Made by a program: the position numbers and the translations under genes. From the NCBI GenBank assembly GCA_934095865.1, contig CAKOKU010000002.1, positions 57,495-121,494 of the forward strand: a DNA stretch of 64,000 nucleotides, in the 5' to 3' direction. The notes below the pieces were generated by a model. That model was not told the DNA's origin, searched no databases, and saw nothing but the letters and a program-made list of their open reading frames with translations. This document shows positions 9,055 to 58,917 of this stretch, one piece after another. The number at the start of each line of letters is the position of its first letter. The stretch's first letter is position 1. The DNA comes from an uncultured Bacilli bacterium (GTDB lineage: Bacteria > Bacillota_I > Bacilli_A > RF39 > UBA660).

Positions 9055-10170
9055 CTATTTCTTTAATTTAATCTTTAATTCTTTTTCAAAACCATTACGA
9101 TTGATTTTTATAGTTACTGTGTCACCAACATTATGACGGTATAATTCATATTTTAATTTGGCTGAACTTGATACTTTAACATTATCAAATTCTAAAATTA
9201 TATCTTGTGATTTTAAGCCAGCTTCTTCAGCAGATGAACCACTTTCAACTTCGTAAACAACAACGCCACTAGTAACATTATCTGGAATATTCATACGGTA
9301 ATAACTTTCCGCAACAGATAATTCTATCATACTAATTCCTAAACGAGGTCTTGTAATATCTTCACCATTGATTATTTTAGTAGCAAATTCAATAGCGTCT
9401 TCGATTGGAATAGCAAAGCCCATTCCCTCAACACCGCTTGATACTAATTTCATGTTGGTTACGCCAATGACTTGACCATTAGAATTACATAAAGGACCAC
9501 CTGAGTTACCACTGTTAATAGCAGCATCTGTTTGTAAAACACGCATTATATAATCACTAGAGCTACTGTTAGTAGTTGAAACAGCAACCATTCTATCTTT
9601 TCCTGATAAAATACCTCTTGTTACAGTCCACGAATAAGTTGAACTATCTAAAGGGGCACCGACAGCGAAAGTTGTATCACCTACGCGGCCATCAGTACTT
9701 GAACCAATTTCAGCAACAGTCATATCTTTTGATGAAGTAAATGATAATACGGCAATATCTGCATATTTGTCGCCGCCAACCACTTCAACTTCCGTTGTTG
9801 TATCATCAGTAAAGACTATATTTACTTTTGATGAGCTTTCAATTACATGATAATTTGTCATGACATAATATTTATTATTATCTTTTTTAAAGATAAAACC
9901 GGTCCCAGTTGCTTGAAGCTTATTACTGCGGTAATTTTCTACAACTACTACGGAATCGTATACTTTTTCAACCGCATCAGCAATGCCATTTTCATTTACT
10001 GTTACTTCTTTTTCTAGTTTATTAACAACAGTCGTACTTGGATTAAGTCTAATTATTTCGTACATGGCAAAAGCACCAACGGCAATTAATAACAAGGAAA
10101 TAAATATTTTATTCCAAACATTATTTTTTTCACCAACTACTTTAGCATTAACATAATTTTTTTCATTCAT
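9055..10170 (-). CDS. htrA: HtrA/DegP-family membrane-anchored serine protease with PDZ domain
   Basis: N-terminal TM. Catalytic triad context TNYHVI (His), DIAVL (Asp), GNSGGPL (Ser). C-terminal PDZ-like region. Start ATG overlaps the stop of the upstream Abi_2 gene (TAATG). Confidence 0.85.
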   Translation of the reverse strand: MNEKNYVNAKVVGEKNNVWNKIFISLLLIAVGAFAMYEIIRLNPSTTVVNKLEKEVTVNENGIADAVEKVYDSVVVVENYRSNKLQATGTGFIFKKDNNKYYVMTNYHVIESSSKVNIVFTDDTTTEVEVVGGDKYADIAVLSFTSSKDMTVAEIGSSTDGRVGDTTFAVGAPLDSSTYSWTVTRGILSGKDRMVAVSTTNSSSSDYIMRVLQTDAAINSGNSGGPLCNSNGQVIGVTNMKLVSSGVEGMGFAIPIEDAIEFATKIINGEDITRPRLGISMIELSVAESYYRMNIPDNVTSGVVVYEVESGSSAEEAGLKSQDIILEFDNVKVSSSAKLKYELYRHNVGDTVTIKINRNGFEKELKIKLKK

Positions 10171-11120
10171 TATATATCCATCCTTACTATTTCTTTATAA
10201 TTTTGAGGGAATCCCATCGCATCCATTACTTTATCTATATTAATAGTTTTTAATTTTCCAGCTAGAATGTCTAACTCATATGATATTTCATTTACTAATA
10301 ATCTAAAATCTTCATTTCTTAGTATCTGTCTTAATATAATAATTAATGCAAATAAATCGTCTTTTCCATAAATATATTCACCGTTCATTTTTGGAATATT
10401 TAAGTAATAATGATATTTGTTATCTTCAACAACTCTTTGGGAGCGGTGATTATATAAGATATCTTCATGGGCACATAAGTTACGGTAATTAGACATAATT
10501 GGGAAATACTGACATAGTTGTTCAGAGGATAAGTTATAAATGTCAGCAATTGCTTTTTGATCTTCAGGTTTTAAAATATTATATAATTCACTTATGATAC
10601 CAAAAGATAAGACTTTTACTACAATCCATAAAGGTACATACCCATAATTTGTCATGTAGTGCATGGTTGCAGAATGTTGACCACCATTTACCCGAATTTG
10701 ACGTTGCATTTTTTTAATTAAATCATTAACTTGGCGTTTTTTAGTTGGGTCAGTATTAAAATTTTTAGGATTTAAATAATGTTTTTCTTTAATACCATAT
10801 TTTTTGGAGAGTTGGTATGAGAAAATACTTTTAGCATTATTTTCAACTATTAAGATGTTTTTGAAAATAATATTACGAACTTGGCGGTCGAAATTGAAAA
10901 CAGCATATAATTCGCGAAAATTAGTATTTGTAATGAATGTACGGTCTGTTTCACTTTTTATGAACAAGTGACGGTATCCCATTAAAAAGAAATAATTTTC
11001 TCTTAAAAGAATATCTTTAGCATACTCAATATCATCAATGATTAAACCTTTTTCTTCTAAAATGGTTACTTGTTCATCAATTGTTTTAAATGTCTTTTGT
11101 CTGGACGCCATATAATTCAC
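10170..11120 (-). CDS. Abi_2 (AbiD/AbiF-like) abortive-infection family protein
   Basis: 316 aa. N-terminus KTFKTIDEQVTILEEKGLIIDD...NYFFLMGY matches the conserved N-terminal signature of Abi_2/AbiD/AbiF proteins. Translationally coupled to htrA. Confidence 0.65.
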   Translation of the reverse strand: MNYMASRQKTFKTIDEQVTILEEKGLIIDDIEYAKDILLRENYFFLMGYRHLFIKSETDRTFITNTNFRELYAVFNFDRQVRNIIFKNILIVENNAKSIFSYQLSKKYGIKEKHYLNPKNFNTDPTKKRQVNDLIKKMQRQIRVNGGQHSATMHYMTNYGYVPLWIVVKVLSFGIISELYNILKPEDQKAIADIYNLSSEQLCQYFPIMSNYRNLCAHEDILYNHRSQRVVEDNKYHYYLNIPKMNGEYIYGKDDLFALIIILRQILRNEDFRLLVNEISYELDILAGKLKTINIDKVMDAMGFPQNYKEIVRMDI

Positions 11121-11198: not shown

Positions 11199-11756
11199 TT
11201 AAGTGAAATAGTCGATTATCCCAGATGTGATGACTTCGGCGATTTGGGTCTGATATTCTTTGGTTTGTAACTTTTCTCGTTCGTTGGCATTAGAAATAAA
11301 GCCACATTCGACTAATACCCCCGGAAGCTTTAGGCGTCTATACATATATATATTAGGCATATTTTTTATAGAGCGGGGATAACTTATCTCGTTAAAACGT
11401 GCTTGAATTTTCTCGGCTAATTTTTTATTTTCTTCACCATAATAAAATATTTGACCGCCATAATATGATTTATCATCTAAATAATTAATATGAATAGAAA
11501 CATAGAGGTCTGCTTTGGAATTATTTATTAAATCAATACGATTGTCGAAGTCGCTTTTCTTTCTTCTCTTGGCATTAGGTGTTGATAAATCATAATCGCC
11601 ATCTCTAGTTAAAATTACACTAGCTCCATTTTTTATAATTGTTTCTTCTAGGGCATGACTAATTTGTAAGTTTAAGTCCTTTTCTAAAACATTTTGATAA
11701 CTGGTTCCTGGATCATCACCACCATGTCCAAGAATCGGAAAAGTCCAAATTATCAT
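11199..11756 (-). pseudogene. cwlD: 3' portion of split cwlD-like N-acetylmuramoyl-L-alanine amidase gene (Amidase_3)
   Basis: Encodes ...ILGHGGDDPGTSY...ADLYVSIHINY...LVECGFISN...IDYFT (Amidase_3, CwlD-like) but lacks signal peptide/TM. The missing N-terminus is found at 21872-21988. The listed ATG at 11756 is probably fortuitous element-derived sequence. Confidence 0.8.
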
Positions 11757-11764
11757 CTTTTATC

Positions 11765-13372
11765 TTAAAATTCTAAGTTCCATTCTATTTCAATATCTCG
11801 TGTTTTCGTTTCTTTATCATAAACTCCGACATAAACCTTATCAATAAATTCATCAACTATTACTTTGTTTAATTCTTTGATATGCTTATATTTTTTTAGT
11901 ATTTCATCAGCTTGTTTTCGTTCTTCTTTAACAACTTGTAGGTTATTTATCTCATTATCAATCGTTTCAACTCTTTTTGTCATTGATTCGATTTCTCTTA
12001 AATAATCACTAGACATCATACTAAACATATCTTCAGTAATAGTTCCTTTTACCTTATCTTCATATAGATTTCTATAAAAGGTTTTATTATCTTCTATTTT
12101 TTTGTTAAGATTATATTTTTCTTTTTCTAAAACTTTTATTATTTCACAATTACTTGTGTCTTGTTGATTTCTTCTATTATAGAGTTCTTGTAAATTATTT
12201 TGATCGTAGTAATTATCTAGTAAATCATTAATTGCATTAAGTAGTATAGTTTCTAATTCATCCATTCTAATTGCTTTGTTATTATCGCAAGTGTGATATT
12301 TTTTAGCACCTTTACATTGTAGGTATGCTCTTTTACCTGTCTTTTCTCCTTTAACATTGTACACATTTCTCATAAAAACCTTATCACATTCCATACAATA
12401 CACTTTTCTACTTAAATAATGTATCTCTCCTGTTTTAATCGGTTCTTGATGTGTACCTAGTATCTTTTGCACTTTGTTCCATGTTTCCTTATCAATAATA
12501 GCCTCGTGTGAGTTTTCTATTCTACACCAATCTTTTTCTGCTACTTTTTTAAACTTATGAACTTTATATCCCATTGAAGTTATTTTTCCTTGTACAAGAT
12601 TACCTATATAAAATTCATTTCGTAGCATTTGGGCTATGGTATCAGGATTCCATCTTACATTTTTATAATCACAATTAGAACATACAAATTTACTTCCTTT
12701 TTGTTTCTTATATACTGACCTTGGTGGAATATTATTGTTATTTAGATATTCACAGATTTTATGGTAACCATTTCCCTCTGCATACATTTGAAATATCTTT
12801 TTAACAACTTCAGCAGCCACAGGATCAACAACTAACTTGTGTTTATCTTCTTCACTTCTATCATAACCATAAGGAGCAAAACTTCCCATAAATAAACCAT
12901 CTTCTCGTTTATTCTTTAATGACTTTTTGATATTTGTTGATAAATCATCTAAATACCATTCATTGATAAGCCCATTTATTTGTCTTGATTTCTTGTTAGA
13001 TTCAATACTTGTATCAGCGTTATCAACAATACTTACAAATCTTACTCCCCATTCAATAAATTTATTGTGTAAATATCTTTCAATGACTTCCATATCTCTT
13101 GAAAATCTTGATTGACTTTTGCATAAAACTAAATTGATTTTACCACTTTCACAATCTTTGATAAGTCTTTCAAAGTCAGGTCTATAAGTTCCTGCTCCTG
13201 AAAAATCATCATCTGAATAAATATCTACAACATTCCATCCATTTTGATTAGCATATTTTAAACACATACTTCTTTGATTTACTATACTATCACTATCATC
13301 ATTTTTATTTATCTTATCTCTATCTTCATCAGATAATCTACAATATACACCTACCTTTTCTATCATAGCCAT
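11765..13372 (-). CDS. large serine recombinase (resolvase/invertase N-domain + recombinase + zinc-ribbon + coiled coil)
   Basis: 535 aa. N-terminal VGVYCRLSDEDRD (catalytic Ser context). Cys cluster CSNCDYK...CMECDK...CKGAKKYHTCDN. C-terminal coiled coil. Situated 9 bp upstream of the cwlD 3' fragment, as spoIVCA is in skin. Confidence 0.85.
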   Translation of the reverse strand: MAMIEKVGVYCRLSDEDRDKINKNDDSDSIVNQRSMCLKYANQNGWNVVDIYSDDDFSGAGTYRPDFERLIKDCESGKINLVLCKSQSRFSRDMEVIERYLHNKFIEWGVRFVSIVDNADTSIESNKKSRQINGLINEWYLDDLSTNIKKSLKNKREDGLFMGSFAPYGYDRSEEDKHKLVVDPVAAEVVKKIFQMYAEGNGYHKICEYLNNNNIPPRSVYKKQKGSKFVCSNCDYKNVRWNPDTIAQMLRNEFYIGNLVQGKITSMGYKVHKFKKVAEKDWCRIENSHEAIIDKETWNKVQKILGTHQEPIKTGEIHYLSRKVYCMECDKVFMRNVYNVKGEKTGKRAYLQCKGAKKYHTCDNNKAIRMDELETILLNAINDLLDNYYDQNNLQELYNRRNQQDTSNCEIIKVLEKEKYNLNKKIEDNKTFYRNLYEDKVKGTITEDMFSMMSSDYLREIESMTKRVETIDNEINNLQVVKEERKQADEILKKYKHIKELNKVIVDEFIDKVYVGVYDKETKTRDIEIEWNLEF

Positions 13373-13642
13373 TCCTCCAATACTAGAGAACAGCTATAAA
13401 TATTTGTAAATACAAGTATATTATATCTCATATTTAGGATTCTTTAAATGCTAGTTTTTGATTTTCTAAAATCATAATGACATTTAACAATTTATTATTA
13501 AATATACTTTTTAATTCATCATCAGTTCTATTTTCATTTGTCTTAAATTTATATTTTACATTATATACTACCTCCATTTTCTTACTTCCCCCTTTTTTCA
13601 TATTCTATAATCTAAATCCTCCAATCATACACATCTCTCCTT

Positions 13643-14119
13643 TCATTTATAATCTTTCATTAGTTCTTCCATTTCTTTTTGTTCTTCTTCATTTAATGGG
13701 ACTGAAACACATACTTCAGGGTGTTCCAGCCAATAAGGAATTATTTCTTTTCTTTTATTATTCTTTTTATATTTATTATTATTTATATTATGGGTGCAAT
13801 TGCTTGCACTATCATTACTGCAATTTTCTGCATCTTCATCTGCAACTTTTGTTGGTATCTTTTCCATATTTAAATATATTCTTCGTTTACTATTTTCATT
13901 TTTTACTATGATATAGCCTAGTTTCTTTAATTTAGACAATGAGTAATTTATCGTTCTTTCTGATGAATTTATATACTCTTTTAGATAATCATTAGTAGCA
14001 TAACAATACCCTTTATTTAAGGCAAGTGATATGATAAGACTTAAAACATCAATATCAGTTCTTGATAAGTTCTTATCTCTAAATAATATTCGTGGAGTTA
14101 TGATAAATTCACTAGTCAA
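13643..14119 (-). CDS. winged-helix DNA-binding protein (possible replication initiator/regulator of the element)
   Basis: 158 aa. N-terminal wHTH-like DIDVLSLIISLALNKGYCYATNDYLKEYINSSERTINYSLSKLKKLGYI. Confidence 0.45.
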   Translation of the reverse strand: MTSEFIITPRILFRDKNLSRTDIDVLSLIISLALNKGYCYATNDYLKEYINSSERTINYSLSKLKKLGYIIVKNENSKRRIYLNMEKIPTKVADEDAENCSNDSASNCTHNINNNKYKKNNKRKEIIPYWLEHPEVCVSVPLNEEEQKEMEELMKDYK

Positions 14120-14171
14120 TTTTAAAATAATTATTCTCCTTAAATCTAAAATGATATTGGACTTTTTCCTA

Positions 14172-14188
14172 GCCTATTAAAAATAGGC
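14172..14188. promoter_or_regulatory. perfect inverted repeat GCCTATT-AAA-AATAGGC (candidate operator)
   Basis: 7-bp arms with 3-bp spacer, ~55 bp upstream of the wHTH gene start. No T-tract follows, so it is unlikely to be a terminator. Confidence 0.3.
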
Positions 14189-14314
14189 AAAGTTATCCCC
14201 AGAACATAATTTTAAATCCTGTCCCTAGGATTGAATGAAGTTTATTCTATTTTGATAGAAAAGGTACTAACATAAGCCTATATATCTTACTGTACCATAT
14301 CTACTAGGAGTTAT

Positions 14315-14578
14315 TTAACAACCTAGTAGATTTATTGTGTACATTCCTGTATCATATTCCTTGTAGATTAGATACTTTAATTGTTCCAATATTTCAAGAT
14401 TCCTTTTTAAACCTTTATTTTTAATTTTTACTACTTGTTGTAATTCTCCAACATTTAAATCTGTGATAATCCTATCTTGTCCTTTAGCGTAGATATATGA
14501 ATATATCAGTTTTCCCTCAGGTTTGATTCTCTTATCCTTTAAAATCTTTGTTGGCATTTCCTGATGTCTTTTATTCAT
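14315..14578 (-). CDS. small winged-helix DNA-binding protein
   Basis: 87 aa. Pattern similar to the adjacent wHTH protein (IYSYIYAKGQDRIITDLNVGELQQVVKIKNKGLKRNLEILEQLKYLI). Confidence 0.4.
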   Translation of the reverse strand: MNKRHQEMPTKILKDKRIKPEGKLIYSYIYAKGQDRIITDLNVGELQQVVKIKNKGLKRNLEILEQLKYLIYKEYDTGMYTINLLGC

Positions 14579-14753
14579 TCATAGATTTCCTCCTTTCTTG
14601 TCAATTAACATTTTAAGTATAATGTTAACTTTCAGAAACATCTATAATATACATAATAATTACTAACTTGTCAACACTTTTAGAAACAATTTTAATTATT
14701 TTGTTGATTTTAGTTAACATATATGCTATTATGTACTTGTGAGGTGTATTACA

Positions 14754-15257
14754 ATGCAAGAAAAAAAGATTGGCGAAATTATTGCCGAAGCACGAGAAAA
14801 AGCAGGTTATTCGCAAAGGCAACTTGCAAAAGAAGCAAATATTAGTAATGCCGAATTATCTAAAATAGAATCAGGAGAAAGAGAAATACCAAATCCTAAA
14901 ACATTAAGAAAAATAAGTAAATATATAAATGTTAATTATAATGAAATGATGTATAAAATAGGTTTAGGTATGGAAGTCAGTTCATTAAACCCATTTATTA
15001 AAGCCTATTATGAAAAGATGAATTTAGATGAACTGAATGAGGCTGAAATCAATGTTTTAGGTAGTATCGAAAATTCAAGAAAACTTGTTGATTCGTGCAA
15101 AGAGAATTTAAAAAAGAAAAACATATTAGAAAACGAAAAAGAACTACTACTACATACAATAGAAGATACTGAATATCAAATCAATACTTCTAGAGAAATT
15201 GTAAATTTGATTCAAAGTTTAAAAGTAAAGGAGAGAAACAAAAATGCAAAAAAGTAA
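14754..15257 (+). CDS. XRE-family HTH transcriptional regulator
   Basis: IGEIIAEAREKAGYSQRQLAKEANISNAELSKIESGER is a canonical HTH_XRE. Divergent from the wHTH gene, a switch-like arrangement. Start taken at MQEKKIGE. Confidence 0.75.
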   Translation: MQEKKIGEIIAEAREKAGYSQRQLAKEANISNAELSKIESGEREIPNPKTLRKISKYINVNYNEMMYKIGLGMEVSSLNPFIKAYYEKMNLDELNEAEINVLGSIENSRKLVDSCKENLKKKNILENEKELLLHTIEDTEYQINTSREIVNLIQSLKVKERNKNAKK

Positions 15258-15690
15258 AATTTTAATAAGAAATATTGGAATCATATTATTAAATATTTTT
15301 ATGGTAGTAAGCTTGGTATTAGTTTTATTTCAGAAAAATGATTATGGCTATAATTTATATTGGGTTATTAGTCCATTTCTAATGGTATTAGTGTTAATGG
15401 TGATAGGTAGGTGGAGCATAAGAGGATTAAATGTTGATAGAGAAGAATCCCAAGTGATACAACGATCTTTTGATGATACAACAACTATATCAACAGTAAT
15501 CTTTGGAATAATATATCTAACTATACAATTTATAGACTATGTAAAAAATGGTCTAACAAATAATTCAATAATTATTATAATCTTCTTCGTTGTCATGATT
15601 ACCTATGAACTTATAACCTACTTAGCTATATATGTAGCCATAAGAGATACTGCAAGATTATTAGAGAAAACATATAATAAGAAAAAATAG
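15244..15690 (+). CDS. hypothetical multi-pass membrane protein
   Basis: 148 aa, 3-4 predicted TM helices. Overlaps the 3' end of the XRE gene (operon). Confidence 0.45.
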   Translation: MQKSKILIRNIGIILLNIFMVVSLVLVLFQKNDYGYNLYWVISPFLMVLVLMVIGRWSIRGLNVDREESQVIQRSFDDTTTISTVIFGIIYLTIQFIDYVKNGLTNNSIIIIIFFVVMITYELITYLAIYVAIRDTARLLEKTYNKKK

Positions 15691-15876
15691 TCTTTTTCGC
15701 TTTTCGTAAGATTAGCGATTAGACTATTCTTTTATAAAAAGGCGAGGCACGTTTTGTTTGCTTTAGAAAATGAAAGTGGCGATAGCCTTTTTCTTTTTAT
15801 GTAACGATAGTGAAATAAAAAGGCAACTATATTACATTGTGAAACTTTGTAATATAAGTTGCTTCTAGGGTTTCCA

Positions 15877-15892
15877 AAGGGAATATTCCCTT
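15877..15892. promoter_or_regulatory. 16-bp perfect palindrome AAGGGAATATTCCCTT
   Basis: Seen directly, in a 350-bp non-coding region inside the element. Candidate protein-binding site. Confidence 0.3.
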
Positions 15893-16047
15893 GGCACACA
15901 TCGTTATTGGCTTGCCAATACCGTAGTGTGTTACTATAATGAAATTATAGTCTATAAAATCGAGCCATTAGTTGCTTAATTTCTTTTGGCTCGGTTTTTA
16001 TTTTAAACTGTTTTATAGATTGTAATTTGTAATTATTTCTATATATG

Positions 16048-18147
16048 CTATTTAGTATTTATTTTTTTACAAATTGGACATCCTCTACCTCTATTTCTAT
16101 TTGATATAATTGCTTCCCACTCATGTCCTTTGTTACATTTCCACCATACCTTTTTTCCACTGTTTGATGCAACCATATCTGGTTTTAAATCACCATTTTT
16201 TTCATAATTCCATTCTTTTGTAAGTGTTGGATTAATAGTTGCAAGATCATTATATCCTTTAAGTATTTGTTTATTTTTACAAACTGGGCATCCTTTTCCT
16301 TTATTTCTATTATCAATACTTGCTTCCCACTCATGTCCTTTGTTGCATTTCCACCATACCTTCTTATTAGCATTTGCTGTAACCATATCTGGTTTTAAAT
16401 CACCATTTTTTGAATAATTCCATTCTTTTGCAAGTTCTGGATTAATAGTTGCAAGATCATTATATCCTTTAAGTATTTGTTTGTTTTTACAAATTGGACA
16501 GTCATTTCCATTTGTCCTATTTGATATAGTTGCTTCCCACTCATGACCTTTGTTACATTTCCACCATACCTTTTTATTACTTCCTAAAGTTACATCTTTA
16601 GGGGTTAATGATGCGTTCTTTTCATAGTTCCATTCTTTCGCAAGTATTGGATTAGTAGTTGCAAGGTCATTATACCCTTTATGTATTTGCTTGTTTTTAC
16701 AAATTGGACATCCTCTGCCTTTATTTCTATTTGATATATAGGTTTCCCACTCATGACCTTTATTACATTTCCACCATACCTTTTTATTAGCATTTACTGT
16801 AACCATGTCAGGTTTTAAATCACCATTTTTTTCATAATTCCATTCTTTTGCAAGTGCTGGGTTAATAGTTGCAAGATCATTATACCCTTTAAGTATTTGT
16901 TGACTTGCACAAATTGGACAACCAACTCCATCTGTTCTACTATATATACTTGCTTCCCACTCATGACCTTTATTACATTTCCACCATACCTTTTTTCCAC
17001 TGTTTGATGCAACCATATCTGGTTTTAAATCACCATTTTTTTCATAATTCCATTCTTTTGCAAGTTCTGGATTAATAACCATTAATGAATGTTTCTTTTG
17101 TCTTTTTATAAATGATGTATATATTAAAATACGGTCTCTATCCAAATTAACATCTATGGTTTTATTAAAATGTTTTACTATATGTTCGATGGCAAATTTA
17201 ATTCCTTCATCAGAATATGTACATGGTATTATTTTTAAATAATCATTTTCTATAATTTCTTCTTTGAAATCTTCCTTTACTCTAAAAAGAAGAATTTCAT
17301 TTTCTTTACAAAGTTTATTTTTTCTTTCATCTTTTTCTGGATTCTGATGCCAAAATATCCCATCATATTCAACAGCAACTTTTTGTGATGGAATAAAAAT
17401 ATCTAACTCCATTTTCAAATGGCGATCACCATTTATAGCATCTGGAAACAATTTTTTTAAATAAAAATAAATTGCCTGCTCTGGAAAAGAAGTTTGTAAT
17501 TCTCTTGCACAAATTGGGCAACCATTACCTTTATTTCGACTAGATATAATTGCTTCCCACTCATGCCCTTTAACACATTTCCACCATACTTTTTTATCAC
17601 TATTTGGCTTTACCATATTTGGTTTTAAATCACCATTCTTTTTGTAATTCCATTCTTTTGCGAGTGTTGGATTTATAGTTGCTAGATCATTATACCCCAT
17701 GATTGATTGCCTACCTGAGCAAAAAGGACATCCAATGCTCTTACTTCTACTTTTTATACAGGCTTCCCATTCATGTCCTTCAGAACATTTCCACCATACC
17801 TTCTTACTGCTCCCTATGGTTACATCTTTAGGGGTTAATGGTGCATTCTTTTCATAATTCCATTCTTTTACTAAATCCGATCTTTTGTCAAATAGACTGC
17901 CATTTTTTTCTACTAAGGCTTTAATCCTATTTTTTCCTCTTTTAGAAAGTGAGCATATCGGACAGCCTCTACCTTTATTTCTATTTGATATACTTGCTTC
18001 CCACTCATTTCCACATTCGGAACATTTCCACCATACCTTTTTATCGCTTCCTGTTGTTAATAACTTTGGATTTAATCCTTCATTTTTTGAATAATTCCAT
18101 TCTTTCATTAGATATTCATTATCGATTAAATATTTTTTGTCTTTCAT
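16048..18147 (-). CDS. multi-zinc-ribbon (treble-clef) repeat protein with central Vsr/DUF559-like PD-(D/E)xK nuclease domain
   Basis: 699 aa from MKDKKYL (GGTGA-type RBS upstream). Eight ~57-aa repeats LAKEWNYEKNGDLKPDMV...KKVWWKC.KGHEWEA.IS.R.KG.GCPIC, three before and five after a core ELDIFIPSQKVAVEYDGIFWHQ...ILLFRVKE resembling Vsr/DUF559 endonuclease folds. Confidence 0.6.
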   Translation of the reverse strand: MKDKKYLIDNEYLMKEWNYSKNEGLNPKLLTTGSDKKVWWKCSECGNEWEASISNRNKGRGCPICSLSKRGKNRIKALVEKNGSLFDKRSDLVKEWNYEKNAPLTPKDVTIGSSKKVWWKCSEGHEWEACIKSRSKSIGCPFCSGRQSIMGYNDLATINPTLAKEWNYKKNGDLKPNMVKPNSDKKVWWKCVKGHEWEAIISSRNKGNGCPICARELQTSFPEQAIYFYLKKLFPDAINGDRHLKMELDIFIPSQKVAVEYDGIFWHQNPEKDERKNKLCKENEILLFRVKEDFKEEIIENDYLKIIPCTYSDEGIKFAIEHIVKHFNKTIDVNLDRDRILIYTSFIKRQKKHSLMVINPELAKEWNYEKNGDLKPDMVASNSGKKVWWKCNKGHEWEASIYSRTDGVGCPICASQQILKGYNDLATINPALAKEWNYEKNGDLKPDMVTVNANKKVWWKCNKGHEWETYISNRNKGRGCPICKNKQIHKGYNDLATTNPILAKEWNYEKNASLTPKDVTLGSNKKVWWKCNKGHEWEATISNRTNGNDCPICKNKQILKGYNDLATINPELAKEWNYSKNGDLKPDMVTANANKKVWWKCNKGHEWEASIDNRNKGKGCPVCKNKQILKGYNDLATINPTLTKEWNYEKNGDLKPDMVASNSGKKVWWKCNKGHEWEAIISNRNRGRGCPICKKINTK
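16050..18100. repeat. intragenic tandem ~171-bp coding repeats with long near-identical stretches
   Basis: For example 16141-16230 and 16981-17070 are essentially identical. Several alternate-frame ORFs in the six-frame track are artefacts of this repetition. Confidence 0.8.
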
Positions 18148-18258
18148 TTTCTCACCTTGCTTCAACAAATTATTATTTCTAGCTAAATTACATAAATAAT
18201 TATACCAAAAAAAACAACTCATATACTAGCAGTTGTTATTTAGTTTCGTCTTACTTTT

Positions 18259-19536
18259 TTACATACTTATTTCATAATCATTCTTTTCTTTTTCTTTAGA
18301 TTTTTTACTAGTTTTTAAATAACTAGGTGCTTTTACATAATCAAATAATTCATCTTCTTTGGTAGTTCCTCTTAATATTTTAACAACATCATTCATATCA
18401 AAATCGTTGTTATCAAAATAGTCTTTTATTTCAGTTGTAGTGGCTTCTTTCGTAGGTTCATTACCAATTTGTAATAATTTTCTGAAAAAGTGTTTTATAG
18501 CCTCCAAAATGGCTTTTAAATAGTCTTTAAGATGGTTATTCTCTTTTGTTAAGTTTTGATTTCTTGTAGTAAGTGCTTTTACTTCTCGTTGTAGATTTGC
18601 ATTTTCTTTTTCTAATGTTTGATGACTTTTACTAAAAGTATTTACCTCGTTAAATAATTGTTCCATTTTAGGTTGAAATTCCATAACCTTTTTAGTTTCT
18701 TTTATTACATTTTGCATACTAGCAAAAGTATCTTTTCGTACCTTTACATATTCTTTATCTATTAAAGTATTTTTAGTAGTTTTCATTTTTTCTTCAAATT
18801 CATTCATAGCATTATCAAGATTTTTATTTATAGTAGTTACTTTAGTTTCATAATATCTTGTTGTTTTCTTGAATTCCTTTACTTTTTGATGTTTTCTATC
18901 ACTACCCTTAATACCTCTTTCTAATTCAAAACCATTTTCTCTTAATCTTAAATTATAAATATCTTGCAATTCAGATAAGTGTATATTGTCTCTAATATAT
19001 TGCTTTTTAGAGATAGTAAACCTTTCTGTATTTGTTCTTTTATCAAACTTCTTAATAAGGGGTACAACAACACAATGAATATGAGGTGTTAGTTCATCCA
19101 TGTGTATTGTTGCGTGTAATATTTGTTCTTTCTTATAACCTAAATCATTGTAAACAAAATCCATACAAGTATCAGCCCATCTCATTATTTCATCTTCACT
19201 CATATTATCAAAAAATTTATGTGTTGCAGTAAACATGAGTTCATCAGCTACAACACTTTTAGATTTATTTAACATTTCATTAAATGTCTTTTTTCTTTCA
19301 GGTCGTTCATTTTTCATACGTTCATTATGCTCTTTTTCATAATCTTTTACAAGCAATTTAAAACCCTTAACATATTTCTCTGCTAAGGGTACTAATTCTA
19401 TATTATTTTTAGTTAATTCTAATTTAATATCTTTATTACTTTTATATGCTTTTTTCTCTCGTTTATTGTGTGATCCTATTTGTGCTAAATCGTTTATAGT
19501 CATTATTGGTTGACTTCTAAATATTCCATAATTCAT
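18259..19536 (-). CDS. mob: MobV-family (Mob_Pre) mobilization relaxase
   Basis: N-terminus MTINDLAQIGSHNKRE (HN.R motif); HIHCVVVP (HxH motif); long coiled-coil C-terminal half. Typical plasmid/IME Pre/Mob architecture. Confidence 0.75.
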   Translation of the reverse strand: MNYGIFRSQPIMTINDLAQIGSHNKREKKAYKSNKDIKLELTKNNIELVPLAEKYVKGFKLLVKDYEKEHNERMKNERPERKKTFNEMLNKSKSVVADELMFTATHKFFDNMSEDEIMRWADTCMDFVYNDLGYKKEQILHATIHMDELTPHIHCVVVPLIKKFDKRTNTERFTISKKQYIRDNIHLSELQDIYNLRLRENGFELERGIKGSDRKHQKVKEFKKTTRYYETKVTTINKNLDNAMNEFEEKMKTTKNTLIDKEYVKVRKDTFASMQNVIKETKKVMEFQPKMEQLFNEVNTFSKSHQTLEKENANLQREVKALTTRNQNLTKENNHLKDYLKAILEAIKHFFRKLLQIGNEPTKEATTTEIKDYFDNNDFDMNDVVKILRGTTKEDELFDYVKAPSYLKTSKKSKEKEKNDYEISM

Positions 19537-19607
19537 TTATCGTTCCTCTCTTTCTTAAAAAATTGCATAATAAAAGACACTTCACTATTAAAGTATCTTT
19601 TTGAAAT

Positions 19608-20120
19608 CTATTTTTTTTTGCTTATTCTCTTTACTCTTGAAGATATAAATCTATTTTGCTTAACAAACGAAAAAGCAAAAAGTATTGTCAGTAATGTAAA
19701 CATTACCAAAATTAAAATATCTTTATTAATCAAACTTGAAATTTCAAACATCACCATTATTTTTAACGCCAATTCAATTAGCATTAAAGTACATAAGCTT
19801 CTATACATATTACAATCTTGATTTAAAATTTCTAGTTTGTCATCTTTCTTATTTGCTTCTATATATTTATCATAAGGTTCTTTTTTCAATTTCCATATTT
19901 TAACTATTATCTTCTCAATTACTAATGAGGATATTCTACTAATTATAATACCTATAAAATATGCTTCAAAAAATGAATAAATTAGACTATCTATAATTAG
20001 ATTTTTTTCCATTATTTGACCACTAATAATTAAAAATAAATAACCTGGTACTAAATAGTTAAATATGTGATAGCTACTGATTTTCTCTATTATTTTATCC
20101 ATTTTAATTAATCCTTTCAA
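19608..20120 (-). CDS. hypothetical membrane protein (4 TM)
   Basis: 170 aa hydrophobic. Overlaps the upstream gene by 17 nt (operon with 20104-20535 and the MBL gene). Confidence 0.4.
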   Translation of the reverse strand: MKGLIKMDKIIEKISSYHIFNYLVPGYLFLIISGQIMEKNLIIDSLIYSFFEAYFIGIIISRISSLVIEKIIVKIWKLKKEPYDKYIEANKKDDKLEILNQDCNMYRSLCTLMLIELALKIMVMFEISSLINKDILILVMFTLLTILFAFSFVKQNRFISSRVKRISKKK

Positions 20121-20535
20121 ACGAATAGTTAATCTTATCTTTTACCGAAGTATAAGAACAGTTATATAAATCAAGCTCCGAATTAGTTATTTCAAAATCA
20201 AAACCATATTCTTTTCCATTTAATTTATCAGTTGTAGTATCAGTAAAAAACATATCTTTATTAGGAAACTTTATTTTTTTTACTAATCCTTGATAACAAG
20301 TAATCATCACTATATCATGTTCTTTTGGTTCTTCATTCATTAAAAAACTATAAACCTGGTTATTATGTCCATTTATGAATACTACATTACCATAATTTTC
20401 TGGTATTGACCTTAATTCAATATAATTGTCAAAGAAAAAAGGAATTGTATAAATCTTAAAAACATCATATAGATATTCTTGTCTAGATCTTATTTCTTCA
20501 AAAGTTATTTTTTTTCTTAAAAGGATATATCTCAT
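20104..20535 (-). CDS. hypothetical protein
   Basis: 143 aa, no recognisable motifs. Overlaps both neighbours. Confidence 0.35.
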   Translation of the reverse strand: MRYILLRKKITFEEIRSRQEYLYDVFKIYTIPFFFDNYIELRSIPENYGNVVFINGHNNQVYSFLMNEEPKEHDIVMITCYQGLVKKIKFPNKDMFFTDTTTDKLNGKEYGFDFEITNSELDLYNCSYTSVKDKINYSFERIN

Positions 20536-21397
20536 AACAATTTAAAGTTCCCCTTCTTTCTGCTTTAAATGAATTTTGATTTATACTAAAAGCACCATTT
20601 TTAGTATTCATAATTCGATGTCCCTTAACCTCTAAGTTGTCAGAGCCACCATTAATGTCAGCACCTTTATTATCAGAAACAATATACAACACATCGTTTC
20701 GTTTTTCATTTTTTTCAAATACTTTCTGAGCCATATCATTGTTTCCATGGTGAGGTAATTGAATAGCATCATAATTTCTAGTTTTATCATCAAAAGCAGC
20801 AAAGTCGGCATCTCCAGTTAACAATAACTTTTGTCCATTAAAATTTACTTCTAATTGAACGCTTATAGCATTCATTATCGTACTGCTATCTATATTATTA
20901 CTCTCATTTGGGGTAAATTGTTTAGCAACAGCATCAATAAAATATTCTGTTGCAGGTCCTACAATCTTTAAATTGTCAGATAAATTATTATCATCATCTA
21001 AAGCATCCTTTAAATTTTGTCCTGATAAAGAATAAATGTTACTATACATATCTTTAATATTCTGGGTTAAGGAGTCCCTAGTAACTCTATTATCCTCTAT
21101 TTTATCAAAGATTGCATCTTTATATTTTAATAACAATAATGTTGTAATAGAATTAACTACACCATTATCAACTAATTTTGGTATTCCATCAAAATGATCG
21201 CTATCATTATGTGATAAAACTAAATCAACTTTATCTATATTTTTTTCCTCTAAATAGTGTAGTACTTGATCTGCCAATTCTTCAGAACCACAATCGTACA
21301 CTGTAACACTACCATTATCATTAATAATAAAGCAGTCTCCATAATCAACATTATCTTTTTGCTCCTTAGGAGCAAGAACTTTTATTTCTAAATTCAT
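20498..21397 (-). CDS. ComEC-type metallo-beta-lactamase fold protein
   Basis: Start MNLEIKV with GGAGG RBS. LVLSHNDSDHFDG (H.D.DH variant of HxHxDH); TGDADF; LPHHGNND (the HHG motif of ComEC/Rec2-type MBL domains). Confidence 0.6.
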   Translation of the reverse strand: MNLEIKVLAPKEQKDNVDYGDCFIINDNGSVTVYDCGSEELADQVLHYLEEKNIDKVDLVLSHNDSDHFDGIPKLVDNGVVNSITTLLLLKYKDAIFDKIEDNRVTRDSLTQNIKDMYSNIYSLSGQNLKDALDDDNNLSDNLKIVGPATEYFIDAVAKQFTPNESNNIDSSTIMNAISVQLEVNFNGQKLLLTGDADFAAFDDKTRNYDAIQLPHHGNNDMAQKVFEKNEKRNDVLYIVSDNKGADINGGSDNLEVKGHRIMNTKNGAFSINQNSFKAERRGTLNCYEIYPFKKKNNF

Positions 21398-21466
21398 ATT
21401 ATTCCTCCTCTTTTTAAAAATAAAATCAGAGGTAGATACCAACTTCATTAAACTAATTCAAAATAA

Positions 21467-21510
21467 AACATATTTTACCTCCCTTCCTGTTGAAGAAAAG
21501 GGTAAAATAT
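21467..21510. promoter_or_regulatory. 13-bp-arm inverted repeat AACATATTTTACC...GGTAAAATATGTT upstream of the MBL operon
   Basis: Seen directly. Sits in the 5' region of the minus-strand operon. Candidate operator or structured RNA leader. Confidence 0.3.
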
Positions 21511-21871
21511 GTTAACTACCAATTTTTTATGTTTGACATTTTATCAAAAAATGTGTAATATTATAGTAGGAATTGATTTCATATTTTTCCAATCAGTTCT
21601 TCAAACATTTCGTTATTGTTTGTCTTAATTCGTTGGTAGTTAGTATCTACCGATAAGGAAATATGCTTATTGCCTGAGCATATTTTTTTCTTGTCTTCTT
21701 GTCTTAATTGACATATATCCTTATAGACAAAATATATCATAAAATCACATGATTGGCAATAGATATATAACAGTGCTAATTATTTTTATGAAAAAAGATA
21801 CTTTTTTATCAAAGTACCTTAATTTCTTGTATTTACTTATCTTTATAGCTATTATTTTATTTTTGGATTTT

Positions 21872-21988
21872 TCAGTATCCTCCATGGCCAACATCAATAA
21901 CTATTAGTTTTCCACTTAATGGTAAGGAAGCTCTCGCACACGTTATGGATAGGAAAAAACATAAGATTAACATTATTATCTTTCTCAT
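21872..21988 (-). pseudogene. cwlD: 5' portion of split cwlD: signal peptide/TM and start of amidase domain
   Basis: Minus-strand translation MRKIIMLILCFFLSITCARASLPLSGKLIVIDVGHGGY* matches the B. subtilis CwlD N-terminus (...SLPLSGKIIYLDPGHGG...). It ends exactly where the 3' fragment at 11756 begins (..ILGHGGDDPG). Too short to appear in the ORF track. Confidence 0.8.
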
Positions 21989-22064
21989 ACTAAAACTTAT
22001 GTATAACGTGTAAAAATAATGTTGATTTTATTATATTTGATAATATTTACAAAAAGAAACCAGG

Positions 22065-23762: not shown

Positions 23763-24182
23763 TTATCTCTTACTGAATTGTGGAGCACGACGAGCTTTTT
23801 TAAGTCCGTATTTCTTACGTTCTTTAACACGAGGATCTCTCTTAACAAAACCAGCTTTTTTAAGAACTTTACGATAACTATCTTCTCTTGTTTGATCAGT
23901 ATTAGCATCGAATTCTAATAATGCTCTTGTAATAGCATGACGAATAGCGCCAGCTTGACCTGAGAAGCCACCACCTTTAACTGTAACTTCAATGTCGAAT
24001 TTATCTTCATTACCAGTTGCAGCTAATGGTTGTTTAATATCCATTACTAAAGTTTGATAAGGCATATATTCATCAACAGGTGTTCCATTAACAATAATAT
24101 TACCTTTACCTAGAGTTAATCTAGCTTGTGCAGTAGAACGTTTTCTACGGCCAGTTCCAGTCCATATTTTCTTATCTGTCAT
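23763..24182 (-). CDS. rpsI: 30S ribosomal protein S9
   Basis: 139 aa. GTGRRK near the N-terminus; C-terminal RRAPQFSKR. Confidence 0.9.
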
Positions 24183-24194
24183 AAATTATACCTC

Positions 24195-24626
24195 CTATTT
24201 AACTTCTAACTTTTCTGGTTTTTGAGCAACTTGTTCATATTCTGAACCAGCATAAACAAATAACTTACGATACATTTGTCTTCCTAAAGGTCCTTTTGGT
24301 AACATACCTTTAACAGCTCTTTCTACCATTTCTTCTGGATACTTTGTTATCATTTCTTGGGCAGTTCTTTCTCTTAAGCCACCAGCATATCTACTATGAT
24401 TGTAGTACATCTTATCATTTAATTTATTGCCAGTTAATACAACTTTACTAGCATTAATAACGATAACATAGTCACCACAGTCAATGTGTGGAGTATAAGT
24501 TGGCTTATGTTTACCTTTAAGAACAGTAGCAACCTTAGTTGCAAGACGTCCTAAAGTTTGGCCTTCAGCGTCAATAACATACCATTTACGGTCAACAGTT
24601 TCTTTTTTTTGCATGAATGTATTCAT
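24195..24626 (-). CDS. rplM: 50S ribosomal protein L13
   Basis: [19 protein letters not shown]-terminal signature. Start taken at MNTFMQ. Confidence 0.9.
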
Positions 24627-24837
24627 ATTATATCCTTTCAATTATACTAATCATTATTGGATTTCCCACGTCAAATAATTTTTGTATAAATAAAATGTAC
24701 CAGTTAAAAGTATATAGTAAGTAGGTAATAAAGTCAAATAAAACTTTGATTATTTTAGTAAATTTGACATTATTAGAAAATTTTATTATTATAAATCTTA
24801 ATTTAAAAACACCAACTAAAATAATTGGCGTTCTAAC

Positions 24838-26064: not shown

Positions 26065-26499
26065 ATGTTTTTTGAAGATGTTGATTTTTTAGTTAATGGC
26101 AGTATACCAAATTATAATTCTTTTAATCATACTAATAATGGGCTTGTTGATTGTAAAATGGGGTATCTTAGAGGAAATATGTTTAAAAATGAATATATTC
26201 CATATAAAAATTATAACGTTAAAGAATTAATTCCCAAAACTGAAGAAGAAGCTTTAATGTTAAAGTTAAATGAAGCTGAGTTTGCTTTAAATGATATAAG
26301 TTTATATTTAGATTTACATCCAAATGATGATGATATGTACAATATTTTTCGTGAAGAAGTAAAAAAATATAAATCTTACTTAGAACAATATGAGAAGATG
26401 TATAAACCACTAAATTTAACTAGCACTTATAGTGATGCTTATGATTATTATAAAAATCCATGGCCTTGGGATAATGATGGAGGTGTAAAATATGTATAA
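26065..26499 (+). CDS. cotJB: CotJA/CotJB-like spore coat protein (apparent fusion)
   Basis: C-terminal half (...ISLYLDLHPNDDDMYNIF...KNPWPWDN) matches CotJB (LYLDTHPED...KYPWEW...PWPW). N-terminal ~55 aa with PY motifs could correspond to CotJA. Overlaps the cotJC start. Confidence 0.6.
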   Translation: MFFEDVDFLVNGSIPNYNSFNHTNNGLVDCKMGYLRGNMFKNEYIPYKNYNVKELIPKTEEEALMLKLNEAEFALNDISLYLDLHPNDDDMYNIFREEVKKYKSYLEQYEKMYKPLNLTSTYSDAYDYYKNPWPWDNDGGVKYV

Positions 26500-27052
26500 A
26501 TATGAAAAACACCTAGCTTATCCAGTTAATATTAAGAAAAAAGATTTAAAAATGGCTAAATATATTATTGCTGGTTTAGGTGGATATGCTGGTGAGTTAG
26601 CCGCCGCTTTAAGATATTTTAATCAAAGTTTCTCTATGCCAGATGCTAAAGGTAAAGCACTGCTTAATATGATTGCCACTGAAGAATTAGGCCATTGTGA
26701 AATGATTGCTACTATGTTTAGACAATTAATTAAAGATGCTACTTTACAAGAATTAGAAGCAGCGGGCTTAGCTGAGTATTATGTGGAACATGGAAAAGGT
26801 GTTTATCCTATAAATCCAGCTGGGGTACCATTTACTGTTAGTTATTTTGCCTCGACTGGTGATCCTGTTGTAGATTTATGTGAAGATATGGCAGCGGAAG
26901 AAAAAGCGAGGGCAGGTTATGAAAATATGTTAAACCTAGCTACTGATGAAGATTTAATCGGACCGTTATTATTTTTAAGGCAAAGGGAAATTATTCACTA
27001 TAATAGATTTAAAGAATTATATGAATATTATAAAAATAAAGATAACAAATAA
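26492..27052 (+). CDS. cotJC: spore coat protein CotJC (manganese-catalase/ferritin-like)
   Basis: MYKYEKHLAYPVNI...GELAAALRYFNQ...TEELGHCEMIATMF...AAEEKARAGYE match the B. subtilis CotJC signature almost motif-for-motif. Confidence 0.85.
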   Translation: MYKYEKHLAYPVNIKKKDLKMAKYIIAGLGGYAGELAAALRYFNQSFSMPDAKGKALLNMIATEELGHCEMIATMFRQLIKDATLQELEAAGLAEYYVEHGKGVYPINPAGVPFTVSYFASTGDPVVDLCEDMAAEEKARAGYENMLNLATDEDLIGPLLFLRQREIIHYNRFKELYEYYKNKDNK

Positions 27053-38582: not shown

Positions 38583-38628
38583 ATATAATTCACCTTTCTA
38601 TTAAGAAGTGTGAACTATTTTTCTTTTT

Positions 38629-56974: not shown

Positions 56975-56982
56975 TTTTATCA

Positions 56983-58916: not shown

Positions 58917-58917
58917 T

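Follow-up and report, generated by a model that had tools for sequence, protein, structure and literature searches.

A cwlD-type amidase gene is split by a 10,160-bp element in the DNA analysed here, a stretch of 64,000 nt from contig CAKOKU010000002.1 of an uncultured Bacilli bacterium (the window). The insert appears to be an intact integrative mobilizable element (IME) with its own large serine recombinase (LSR), and precise excision at a common CATGG is predicted to restore cwlD exactly, to the base. Relatives of this element are present in many uncultured gut Bacilli, and their target is, as judged from the DNA, the GHGG-coding motif of Amidase_3 genes and not cwlD as such.

The translation of the minus strand at 21988-21872, which the first-pass annotation of the window had reported as the N-terminus of CwlD up to GHGG, gave MRKIIMLILCFFLSITCARASLPLSGKLIVIDVGHGGY followed by a stop codon. 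It was identical to residues 1-37 of an uninterrupted allele from metagenomes (P0001); the host-coded portion stops at the junction core (21882) and is followed by one element-coded codon (Y) and the stop. The rest of the amidase is found in the 185-aa open reading frame (ORF) at 11756-11199 on the minus strand, which matched positions 5-173 of the 174 positions of the Amidase_3 profile (Pfam, E 5.7e-42). The start ATG of this ORF at 11756 is inside the element DNA, is missing from most related elements and is fortuitous. Joining both halves in silico at CATGG resulted, as predicted before, in a continuous frame of 209 aa, and this protein was 100% identical to the natural P0001 ORF.

CwlD-type amidases have about 210-240 aa and lack cell-wall-binding repeats. 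The joined protein has this architecture, with an Amidase_3 domain after an N-terminal signal/transmembrane (TM) segment (MRKIIMLILCFFLSITCARA) and 209 aa in total. Its match to the CwlD equivalog profile TIGR02883 spans all 189 positions and reaches 193.6 bits, which is under the curated cutoff of 221.55 but by a wide margin the top family match, as the runner-up, AmiC, reached 69 bits. The genes for Ribosomal_L13 and Ribosomal_S9 are located 1.8-2.7 kb upstream of cwlD in conspecific loci (ORFs 23763-24641 in the window), and cwlD is also near rplM-rpsI in B. subtilis and C. difficile. These features identify the interrupted gene as a probable cwlD-type amidase gene. CwlD is needed for the formation of muramic delta-lactam in the spore cortex and for germination. 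Since the cut after codon 37 parts the signal peptide and the first strand from the catalytic body, the integrated state should not be able to yield functional CwlD. A second, intact copy of cwlD, which according to the first-pass annotation would speak for a simple pseudogenising insertion, was not found within the 64-kb window.

The ends of the element were set by blastn of two empty-site contigs (L001 and L002) against the window. Both contigs cover the two flanks of the element, overlap only at the core, and share the neighbours of the window, a GGDEF gene upstream and an Abi_2 gene downstream. Positions 1-1091 of L001 correspond to 22969-21879 of the window and positions 1079-2812 to 11731-9998. 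An uninterrupted cwlD thus exists in the same species, and attB, which the first-pass annotation had wanted to see defined, was taken from the empty sites. On the cwlD strand attB is GATGTTGGC-CATGG-TGGTGATGATCC, the 5' junction is ..GGC-CATGG-AGGATACTGAAAA, and the 3' junction is ..TTCTTGGA-CATGG-TGGTGATG; on the plus strand the core is CCATG at 11722-11726 and 21882-21886. The imperfect 17-bp repeats described earlier at 11719-11735 and 21879-21895 are present, agree in 12 of 17 positions, and have the 5 bp of the core as their sole exact common run. The attB sequence of the window is GATGTTGGCCATGGTGGTGATGATCC, the reconstructed attP sequence is TTCCGATTCTTGGACATGGAGGATACTGAAAAATCC, and the predicted crossover dinucleotide is CA at 21886-21885. 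Because the joined halves are identical to a natural ORF and the empty sites overlap only at the core, the split is far beyond chance.

The exact 185-aa split product was present in 13 contigs of its cluster and in 14 by contig look-up. Ten contigs with the split allele were read; they are from different studies (including Hadza and MERR22) and at least nine samples. Metagenomes with this allele include ERZ27287094, ERZ4561781, ERZ28614456 and ERR7747522. The main intact allele was found in 24-25 contigs with the order rplM, rpsI, GGDEF, cwlD, Abi_2, HtrA, and its cluster has further intact members. Over as much as 1,100 nt on the 3' side of the junction, all occupied contigs matched the window with 100% identity, and the empty ones with 99.4-100%. 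The insertion is therefore found in about one third of the conspecific assemblies as a single haplotype, which argues for one insertion event in a clone that spread between hosts. The ten independently assembled contigs share the junction between the LSR and the 3' fragment or an identical 3' fragment, which excludes misassembly.

Several of these contigs (L084-L086, L092) begin near the junction or within the LSR gene, about 111 nt from its 3' end, a pattern that would result from several copies of the element, or several genomes with it, in those metagenomes. The same study series contains L104, in which an LSR with 99% identity interrupts a different amidase gene. In L084 and L085 (1706-2768; split allele) the HtrA-like protease appears as two ORFs of 135 and 222 aa, compared to one ORF of 371 aa in the window (9055-10170) and in the empty-site contigs, possibly due to a frameshift or an assembly difference.

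Gene content of the inserted element

The positions of all features are collected in Table 1. All four Pfam domains of the LSR (PF00239, PF07508, PF13408, PF14287) scored over the cutoff, and the match to the PHROG integrase had an E value of 2.9e-109. The catalytic-serine motif VYCRLSDED is close to the N-terminus, with YCRLS as residues 10-14. The nearest characterised relatives are TnpX of Tn4451 (catalytic domain, PDB 2mhc) and TndX of Tn5397 (32.5% identity over the full length); XisF was among the top NCBIfam matches (106 bits). TnpX works without a directionality factor (PMC5704250), and DUF4368 is the mark of an LSR clade that was termed multi-targeting in one survey (PMC10083194). Between the stop codon of the LSR gene and the crossover core there are 38 nt, and the fortuitous start of the 3' ORF is 8 nt from that stop codon.

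The LSR gene is the last gene of a leftward operon, in which the genes upstream of it are tightly packed. The promoter of this operon was the top minus-strand match of a consensus scan (11 of 12 positions) and is followed by a palindromic operator (GTTAACATT..AATGTTAA, about 14600-14630). Of the 17 elements with the 87-aa gene, 15 show the TTGACA box upstream of it, mostly with a palindrome after the box. A second promoter-like box is kept in the 61-nt gap before the LSR gene across 20 elements and was also caught by the consensus scan; its reverse complement, ATACAAGTAT, may resemble a SpoIIID site. The 47-aa protein encoded directly upstream of the LSR is a candidate accessory or directionality factor. 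Known recombination directionality factors (RDFs) do not share a common fold. Neither this protein nor the 87-aa protein nor the 148-aa membrane protein had a match in Pfam, PHROG or PADLOC.

Read on the cwlD strand from the 5' junction, the order is PDC-M48B, PDC-M48A, MobV, the 724-aa gene, the XRE repressor gene with the membrane protein gene, and the LSR operon. The relaxase scored 108.8 bits against the NCBIfam MobV profile (cutoff 100). The cargo at 19608-21448 is a candidate anti-phage defence system of the PDC-M48 type. The 724-aa protein has eight near-identical repeats of about 55 aa, (A)KEWNYEKNGDLKPDMV...KKVWWKCxKGHEWEAxIxxRxxGxGCPIC, which flank a Vsr/endonuclease-like core, and the internal DNA repeats of its gene are long enough to confuse assembly.

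Phage structural or lysis genes were absent from the element (PHROGs, Pfam), and no type IV secretion system (T4SS) or coupling protein was found among its ORFs. The element thus combines an integration/excision module and its own relaxase with no genes for a conjugative pore, which is the definition of an IME. The designation as a skin-like element in the first-pass annotation does not fit this gene content: a prophage or skin-like remnant was rejected, as the backbone consists of the integrase, the relaxase, the repressor and the replication-initiator-like protein.

Table 1. Features of the interrupted cwlD locus and of the inserted element (positions in the window)
Feature	Position	Strand	Basis or remark
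cwlD 3' fragment	11199..11726	-	HGGDDPG... to IDYFT, 175 aa; Amidase_3 match; 100% identical to P0001
Junction core, 3' side	11722..11726	-	CATGG, 38 nt downstream of the LSR stop codon
Element body (putative IME)	11727..21881	-	10,160 bp with one copy of the 5-bp core
LSR, 535 aa	11765..13372	-	Resolvase + Recombinase + Zn_ribbon_recom + DUF4368
Conserved promoter-like box	13420..13448	-	TTTAAA-17-TATAAT, then ACTTGTATTT; directly upstream of the LSR gene
47-aa protein (MEVVYNVKYKFK...LLNVIMILENQKL)	13434..13577	-	Directly upstream of the LSR in 20/20 delimited elements
HTH_36 / DnaD-like replication-initiator-like protein, 158 aa	13643..14119	-	Pfam HTH_36; PHROG replication-initiation families
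87-aa protein, first gene of the leftward operon	14315..14578	-	In 17/20 elements
Sigma-A-type promoter of the operon 87 aa / HTH_36 / 47 aa / LSR	14646..14674	-	TTGACA-17-TATATT
XRE/Cro-CI-type repressor	14739..15257	+	HTH_3, HTH_19; PHROG repressor families; divergent from the LSR operon
148-aa predicted membrane protein (cargo)	15244..15690	+	ORF list
724-aa protein (cargo)	16048..18222	-	Eight DUF4379 treble-clef zinc-finger repeats; PHROG HNH/endonuclease families
MobV (Mob_Pre) relaxase, 425 aa	18259..19536	-	HMDELTPHIH motif; Pfam Mob_Pre 3.9e-29
PDC-M48A	19608-20120	-	PADLOC 2.8e-44
143-aa ORF (cargo)	20104-20535	-	
PDC-M48B, MBL fold	20498-21448	-	PADLOC 1.5e-20; Pfam Lactamase_B
cwlD 5' fragment	21872..21988	-	Signal/TM segment and first Amidase_3 strand to GHGG; translation
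Junction core, 5' side	21882..21886	-	CATGG on the cwlD strand; empty-site comparison
Candidate sigma-E-type promoter of cwlD	21994..22020	-	ATTAT (22020-22016), 14 nt, CATAAGTT (22001-21994)

The host gene just downstream of cwlD (10170-11120) is a homologue of AbiD/Abi_2 abortive-infection proteins and is also present at the empty sites. The window is near the replication origin, with dnaA, dnaN and mnmG/mnmE recognised by eye from N-terminal sequences, yidC/jag from position and N-termini, and a ParB/Noc-like gene by eye. It also harbors spoIID, a SpoIIQ-like gene, a SpoIIR-like gene and a cotJB/cotJC-like pair (listed coordinates of the origin-region and sporulation genes: 61096-63613, 52869-59862, 37923-39537, 45755-46261, 26065-27052). 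The presence of sporulation genes stated in the first-pass annotation was borne out, with SpoIID scoring over the cutoff and the others being SpoIIR-, SpoIIQ- and CotJC-like. The data are consistent with a small, sporulation-competent genome of about 27% GC.

Relatives of the element and their target sites

A scan of one genome per species revealed 167 genomes with relatives of the LSR, and 80 of these loci were fetched. Nearly all were from gut metagenome-assembled genomes (MAGs) labelled as uncultured Bacilli, Tenericutes, Mollicutes or Bacillales, with mouse, rabbit, ruminants, chicken and Hadza humans as sources. The host Ca. Fimihabitans was placed in the order RF39 (PMC8035907). In 57 of the 79 species-representative loci the LSR gene is followed by a conserved arm (..AATTTGGACTTTTCCGATTCCTGCA) and then by CATGG-TGG-nnn-GAT-CCn-GG, which encodes H-G-G-x-D-P-G of an Amidase_3 gene starting at exactly that codon. 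A matching 5' fragment was present 6-11 kb upstream in 19 loci; these fragments end with ..D-x-G-H-G-G, 0-12 further codons (mostly 1-3) and a stop codon, followed by the arm AGGATACTGAAAAATCCAAAAAT. The system consists of the LSR, an attP of about 48 bp, and an attB that is DNA coding for a protein motif. Dyad symmetry was 15/22 in the reconstructed attP and 17/22 in the real attP described below, in both cases centred on the CA of CATGG, and this agrees with the one position immediately 5' of the core at which attB and attP differ.

The arm adjoins the LSR gene directly or after one extra gene, which has a Bro-N domain in the locus examined. This extra gene of about 0.9 kb between the LSR stop codon and the att site was seen in L004, L006, L007, L012, L020, L031-L033, L038, L042 and L105 and displaces the LSR by about 900 bp from the junction. 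Several of the encoded proteins start with MNEIKEYNE.., those of L004, L012, L032, L033, L038 and L042 begin otherwise, and the one of L105 is the 277-aa protein with the Bro-N domain. Two loci, L041 and L054, harbor an LSR subfamily (70% identity) with other attP arms (just after the LSR stop codon, about 11605-11650). Here the 5' half of the amidase gene is joined to the LSR the other way round, as ..CCACCATGGCCGGCATCAATTAC encodes VVIDAGHG in reverse complement, and the palindromic CCATGG is used from the other strand.

Twenty elements could be delimited, with 6.0-11.4 kb and variable cargo. Their backbone consists of the LSR and the 47-aa protein (each 20/20), the HTH_36 protein (19/20), and the relaxase, the 87-aa protein and the XRE repressor (17/20 each), and the ends of the window element are conserved in the 19 others. 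The LSRs were 80-93% identical in cases where the CwlD proteins of the hosts were only 40-50% identical. Since the LSRs are far more conserved than their hosts, the insertions are recent and point to horizontal transfer, and because they are recent, intact cwlD halves do not prove selection. An argument for purifying selection that was built on intact 3' halves in 13 species was set aside in view of these values.

Two classes of target genes were distinguished. Besides the window, 12 loci have a cwlD-like target with 3' halves of 175-185 aa and a signal peptide wherever the 5' half is visible; in all 13 cases the same codon is interrupted and the 3' half is a full-length open frame. The second class (about 44 loci) comprises chromosomal genes for an Amidase_3 domain with LysM repeats (five in L003) and without signal peptide, which encode 380-460 aa when uninterrupted, adjoin a SleB-like Hydrolase_2 gene and relA, and are cwlC-like. 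In 15 of their upstream regions anchored on CATA (15/15), A at -18 was present in 11, C at -17 in 14, T at +7 in 15, and A at +8 in 14. This AC-N16-CATAnnnTA motif, 20-29 nt upstream of the start codon (e.g., about 2320-2350 in L003), fits the description of sigma-K promoters in C. difficile and B. subtilis (PMC3789822). Due to this promoter type, the gene for the Amidase_3-LysM protein is read as a late mother-cell gene, and both target classes are plausibly mother-cell sporulation genes. An LSR with 99% identity to that of the window was present in a LysM-type gene in L003 and L104. The choice of the target is hence not gene-specific, and the predicted target is the GHGG-coding motif and not cwlD as such.

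The Amidase_3-LysM gene showed further interruptions. It is broken again about 250-280 nt past the LSR-side junction, right after the second Zn-ligand motif HINAGG(G), in L005, L006, L007, L009, L013, L024, L025, L029, L033, L044, L050, L053, L062, L068 and L079. At least three junction sequences occur at this position, one of which (L006, L009, L013, L025, L062, L079) leads into an ORF starting with MNISYTK; L029 also has this type of junction, and its contig ends before the ORF. Further LSR-like genes (30-37% identity) were found several kb past this break in L025 and L079 and about 0.9 kb past it in L068. A third insertion site is located in the first LysM repeat (..VKSGD|; L011 12640-16030, L047 12250-19717, L038 about 13135). 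The insert in L011 has about 3.4 kb and encodes an LSR of 498 aa (Resolvase, Recombinase and Zn ribbon without DUF4368, 32% identity), which abuts the downstream gene fragment as in the window. In some genomes cwlD and the Amidase_3-LysM gene are neighbours about 2.2 kb apart (L013 and L052 on CAJLIR010000005.1; L011 562-1165 and 3401). One MAG has both genes cut at the GHGG codons, with LSRs 52% and 84% identical to that of the window, and its Amidase_3-LysM gene is interrupted once more at HINAGG. The cwlD of L011 (562-1165) is in two frames with a shift near codon 60 and may be a pseudogene or an assembly error.

A search with the attP-junction pattern detected one JGI metagenome contig, L093 (Ga0352976_1036818; 9,859 bp), and no such junction in IMG/VR viral contigs or the fetched loci. 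In L093 the LSR (80% identical to that of the window) is followed by ..TTTGGACTTTTCCGATACCTCGACATGG-AGGAATAGGATAAATCCAAAAATA and then by the rest of an element. It contains no amidase or host DNA, both of its ends are inside the HTH_36 region (circularly permuted), and a terminal overlap was not found. A member of the family thus exists in excised form, circular or in tandem, and L093 is the sole direct sign of such a form.

Excision and its relation to sporulation

The 20 elements were searched with the patterns AC-N16-17-CATAnnnTA and ATWAT-N13-15-CATAnnnT together with a shuffled control, and the regions upstream of the 47-aa gene, the LSR gene and the operon were aligned by eye across elements. 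In the window element, the strand that encodes the LSR had no match. For the whole set of 20, matches were at or below the shuffle expectation and showed no positional conservation. The sigma-E/sigma-K promoter that the first-pass annotation had suggested for the recombinase was thus not detected, nor was one conserved anywhere in the elements; as a pattern search only, this is a weak negative. A scan for terminator-like sites detected none that separates the cwlD promoter from the cargo genes of the minus strand; its one hit on this strand is inside the relaxase gene.

We consider an ordinary reversible insertion and excision under the control of the element as the best-supported reading and give it about an even chance, with excision coupled to sporulation as the main alternative. 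The LSR would recognise the DNA that codes for the Zn-binding ..D-x-G-H-G-G-x-D-P-G.. motif of Amidase_3 genes, and attP would recombine with this site at the CA inside CATGG. The sigma-A promoter would drive the LSR operon, which the XRE repressor may hold off via the palindromic operator. Upon expression of the operon, the TnpX/TndX-like LSR would excise the element, possibly aided by the 47-aa protein. Excision would rebuild cwlD and release a circle that may be able to replicate briefly, to be mobilised via MobV by a co-resident conjugative element, and to reintegrate into any Amidase_3 gene with the motif. The element would thus act as a reversible, conditional knock-out of a gene that is needed only for maturation of the spore cortex, at no cost in vegetative growth.

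Several observations weigh against this reading. An element that abolishes germination should be costly for an anaerobe that is transmitted by spores, and one carrier haplotype in 10 contigs from at least 9 samples would better fit a function that is restored on sporulation. The gene is cut at the same codon in 12 further species with every 3' half open, and both target classes resemble mother-cell sporulation genes. The failure to detect a sporulation promoter counts for little, a conserved box precedes the LSR gene, and no terminator was found that would stop read-through from the cwlD promoter. An excision product was seen for the relative L093 and not for the window element itself, at which no search in ENA or Logan assemblies was aimed.

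The strongest alternative is a programmed rearrangement like that of skin, which we hold to be possible but somewhat less probable than an even chance. In this case the element would stay integrated in the germ line (forespore), and the LSR would excise it in the mother cell early in sporulation. The 47-aa protein may assist as a directionality factor, or the trigger may be transcription that reads through from the cwlD promoter, or the conserved box in front of the LSR gene. Intact cwlD would then be made from a sigma-E-type promoter in time for delta-lactam synthesis in the cortex. The gene is plausibly a sporulation gene expressed in the mother cell: it belongs to the sigma-E regulon in C. 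difficile (PMC6021603; PMC3789822), and in B. subtilis it is transcribed in both compartments (PMC6021603). The sequence AT(A/T)AT-N13-14-CATAnnnT, with the consensus features taken from PMC3789822, is present upstream of cwlD in three of four cwlD-type loci; in the window it is a weak, single-site candidate with a sigma-E-like -10 region. The second target class has canonical sigma-K-type promoters and adjoins the SleB-like gene, and the studied elements in the mother-cell genes sigK, spsM, spoVFB, spoVR and gerE are all excised during sporulation. The Amidase_3-LysM gene has up to two or three separate insertions in relatives, some of them with other LSRs, as would be expected of a safe harbour. 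Carriers are common and widespread, the split halves are intact in all 13 cwlD cases, and an excised form exists for L093. However, a sigma-E/K-type promoter was not found before the LSR gene, the 47-aa gene or the operon, and the LSR is the last gene of a sigma-A operon controlled by a repressor. The elements are recent arrivals between distant species, which deprives the intact halves of their value as proof of selection. The 47-aa protein is without detectable similarity, one related locus (L011) has a frameshifted cwlD, and hosts of the RF39 type belong to a lineage with repeated loss of sporulation (PMC10868615).

An extended version of programmed excision is tentative, and we doubt it more than we believe it. 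In RF39-type gut Bacilli, cwlD and the Amidase_3-LysM gene would together serve as landing pads for at least three families of serine-recombinase elements, all excised in the mother cell. This would be a multi-element programmed rearrangement comparable to nifD/fdxN/hupL of Anabaena, performed by elements that are currently mobile and mobilizable, with recombinases of the TnpX/TndX type and without a recognisable sporulation promoter. The trigger might be read-through from a sporulation promoter of the host, or else the conserved box that precedes the LSR gene.

It is improbable that the insertion is a dead end, i.e., that cwlD was pseudogenised with negligible excision in one clone that is losing sporulation or is independent of it, and that the gene will decay. 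Sporulation was lost several times independently in RF39 and related orders (PMC10868615), cwlD is frameshifted in L011, all carriers share one haplotype, as a single event would produce, and IMEs with serine recombinases are known to disrupt dispensable genes. Against this, the functions of the element look intact (catalytic motif of the LSR, relaxase motif, conserved backbone), and an excised relative exists. The neighbouring spoIID, spoIIR, spoIIQ and cotJC are intact, neither half of cwlD shows damage or differs from the intact allele, and the same site is used in many species with all 3' halves open.

Very little speaks for an integration that preserves the target, in which the element provides a new N-terminus (MIIWTFPILGHGG...) and the 185-aa ORF is a functional amidase. 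The ORF at 11756-11199 is open, starts in element DNA and keeps GHGG, but its ATG is missing in most related elements, the new N-terminus lacks the signal/TM segment that CwlD needs to cross the membrane, the aligned junction sequences show that the conserved Asp of D-x-GHGG is lost, and a ribosome-binding site is not evident. N-terminal replacement by the element was rejected for want of a conserved start codon, a signal peptide and a ribosome-binding site. An assembly artefact that joined a mobile element to cwlD has next to no probability: the contigs that break off within the LSR gene, about 111 nt from its 3' end, show that the element is repeated in these metagenomes, but the identical junction recurs in independent assemblies of different studies, its architecture is kept in 57 other loci, and the two halves fit together in frame with single-base precision.

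Comparison with known elements

The element of the window resembles skin in sigK (SpoIVCA in B. subtilis; CD1231 and CD1234 in C. difficile) in that an LSR at one end of the element splits a mother-cell gene inside a conserved coding region whose frame would be restored by precise excision. Being a defective prophage, skin has a recombinase or RDF that is expressed under sporulation control, and its excision in the mother cell has been demonstrated. In contrast, the window element is mobilizable, has a relaxase and a repressor and no detected sporulation promoter, and its LSR family also uses a second gene. The first-pass annotation had equated the position of the LSR with that of SpoIVCA; the 535-aa LSR is indeed next to the 3' fragment, whereas the skin recombinase adjoins the 5' fragment (PMC10747680). 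SPbeta in spsM (SprA/SprB) and gin in gerE (B. cereus) also split mother-cell genes with serine integrases. SPbeta is an active mobile element with its own induction circuit that is excised in sporulation as well, and sprB has a mapped mother-cell promoter (PMC4191935), for which no equivalent was detected in the window element. The gin element is a non-prophage intervening element but is minimal and without mobilisation genes, unlike the window element.

In architecture the element is close to Tn4451/Tn4453 (TnpX and TnpZ) and Tn5397 (TndX), which also combine an LSR with a MobV/Pre relaxase and a few small genes in about 6-11 kb. Shared features are also the DUF4368 LSR and the crossover at a 2-bp core (predicted for the window family), and possibly the circular excised form. 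While Tn4451 has low target specificity, the family of the window is strictly site-specific, with one target that codes for a protein motif (57/79 loci). The crossover dinucleotide of the Tn4451 group is GA, compared to the predicted CA here, and the cargo is catP in Tn4451 versus defence-type genes in the window family, which also has an XRE repressor/operator module. The element would thus work like a site-specific IME of the Tn4451 type without being a member of this family, and it may also work like skin, SPbeta or gin.

The streptococcal IMEs that disrupt rumA and the LSRs with one conserved coding site across species (Durrant et al. 2022) are comparable in that they integrate into a conserved gene not required for vegetative growth and that diverse LSRs use a common conserved attB. 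Compared to these, the target of the window family is the catalytic motif of a sporulation enzyme family, in two paralogous classes hit by near-identical LSRs. The relatives of the window element also resemble the heterocyst elements of Anabaena (nifD, fdxN/XisF, hupL), where several elements interrupt genes of one terminal-differentiation programme. Those elements are cyanobacterial, non-mobilizable and of demonstrated developmental excision, with homology only at the level of the LSR superfamily.

Like an intervening element, the insert cuts the coding region of a mother-cell-expressed gene, encodes its own recombinase, and would restore the ORF by precise excision; a sporulation promoter (sigma-E/sigma-K/SpoIIID) on the recombinase or directionality factor was not found. 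Since this promoter and low target specificity are both missing, we filed the element neither under the developmental elements nor in the Tn4451 family. We concluded that it is a new member of the site-specific IMEs with an LSR, with a sporulation gene as target. Targets of intervening elements in the papers searched are sigK, spsM, spoVFB, spoVR, gerE and yabG, nearly all from cultured Bacillus or Clostridium, and yaaH appears as a tip label in the supplementary recombinase tree of one survey. The impression of the first-pass annotation that cwlD is not among them agrees with our search: cwlD or Amidase_3 was not named as a target in the main texts of Abe 2014, Abe 2017, Douillard 2023 or Durrant 2022, in full-text searches, or in the main text and supplements of Mageeney 2020, a coverage that is incomplete and no proof of novelty.

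Elements that split sporulation genes are the textbook case of programmed DNA rearrangement in bacteria, and the present finding adds cwlD, a gene for cortex maturation and germination, to the list of their targets. One recombinase family uses one catalytic-motif codon block of sporulation amidases in dozens of uncultured gut Bacilli with small genomes. If excision is coupled to sporulation, active mobilizable elements and not only decayed prophages could exploit the division of labour between mother cell and forespore, and germination competence in a poorly known gut lineage would hinge on a mobile element. If it is not coupled, germination would often, and reversibly, be lost through these insertions in a clade already known to have given up sporulation several times. 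Either way, the LSR, its attP of about 48 bp and the protein-motif attB make a well-defined integrase/att pair.

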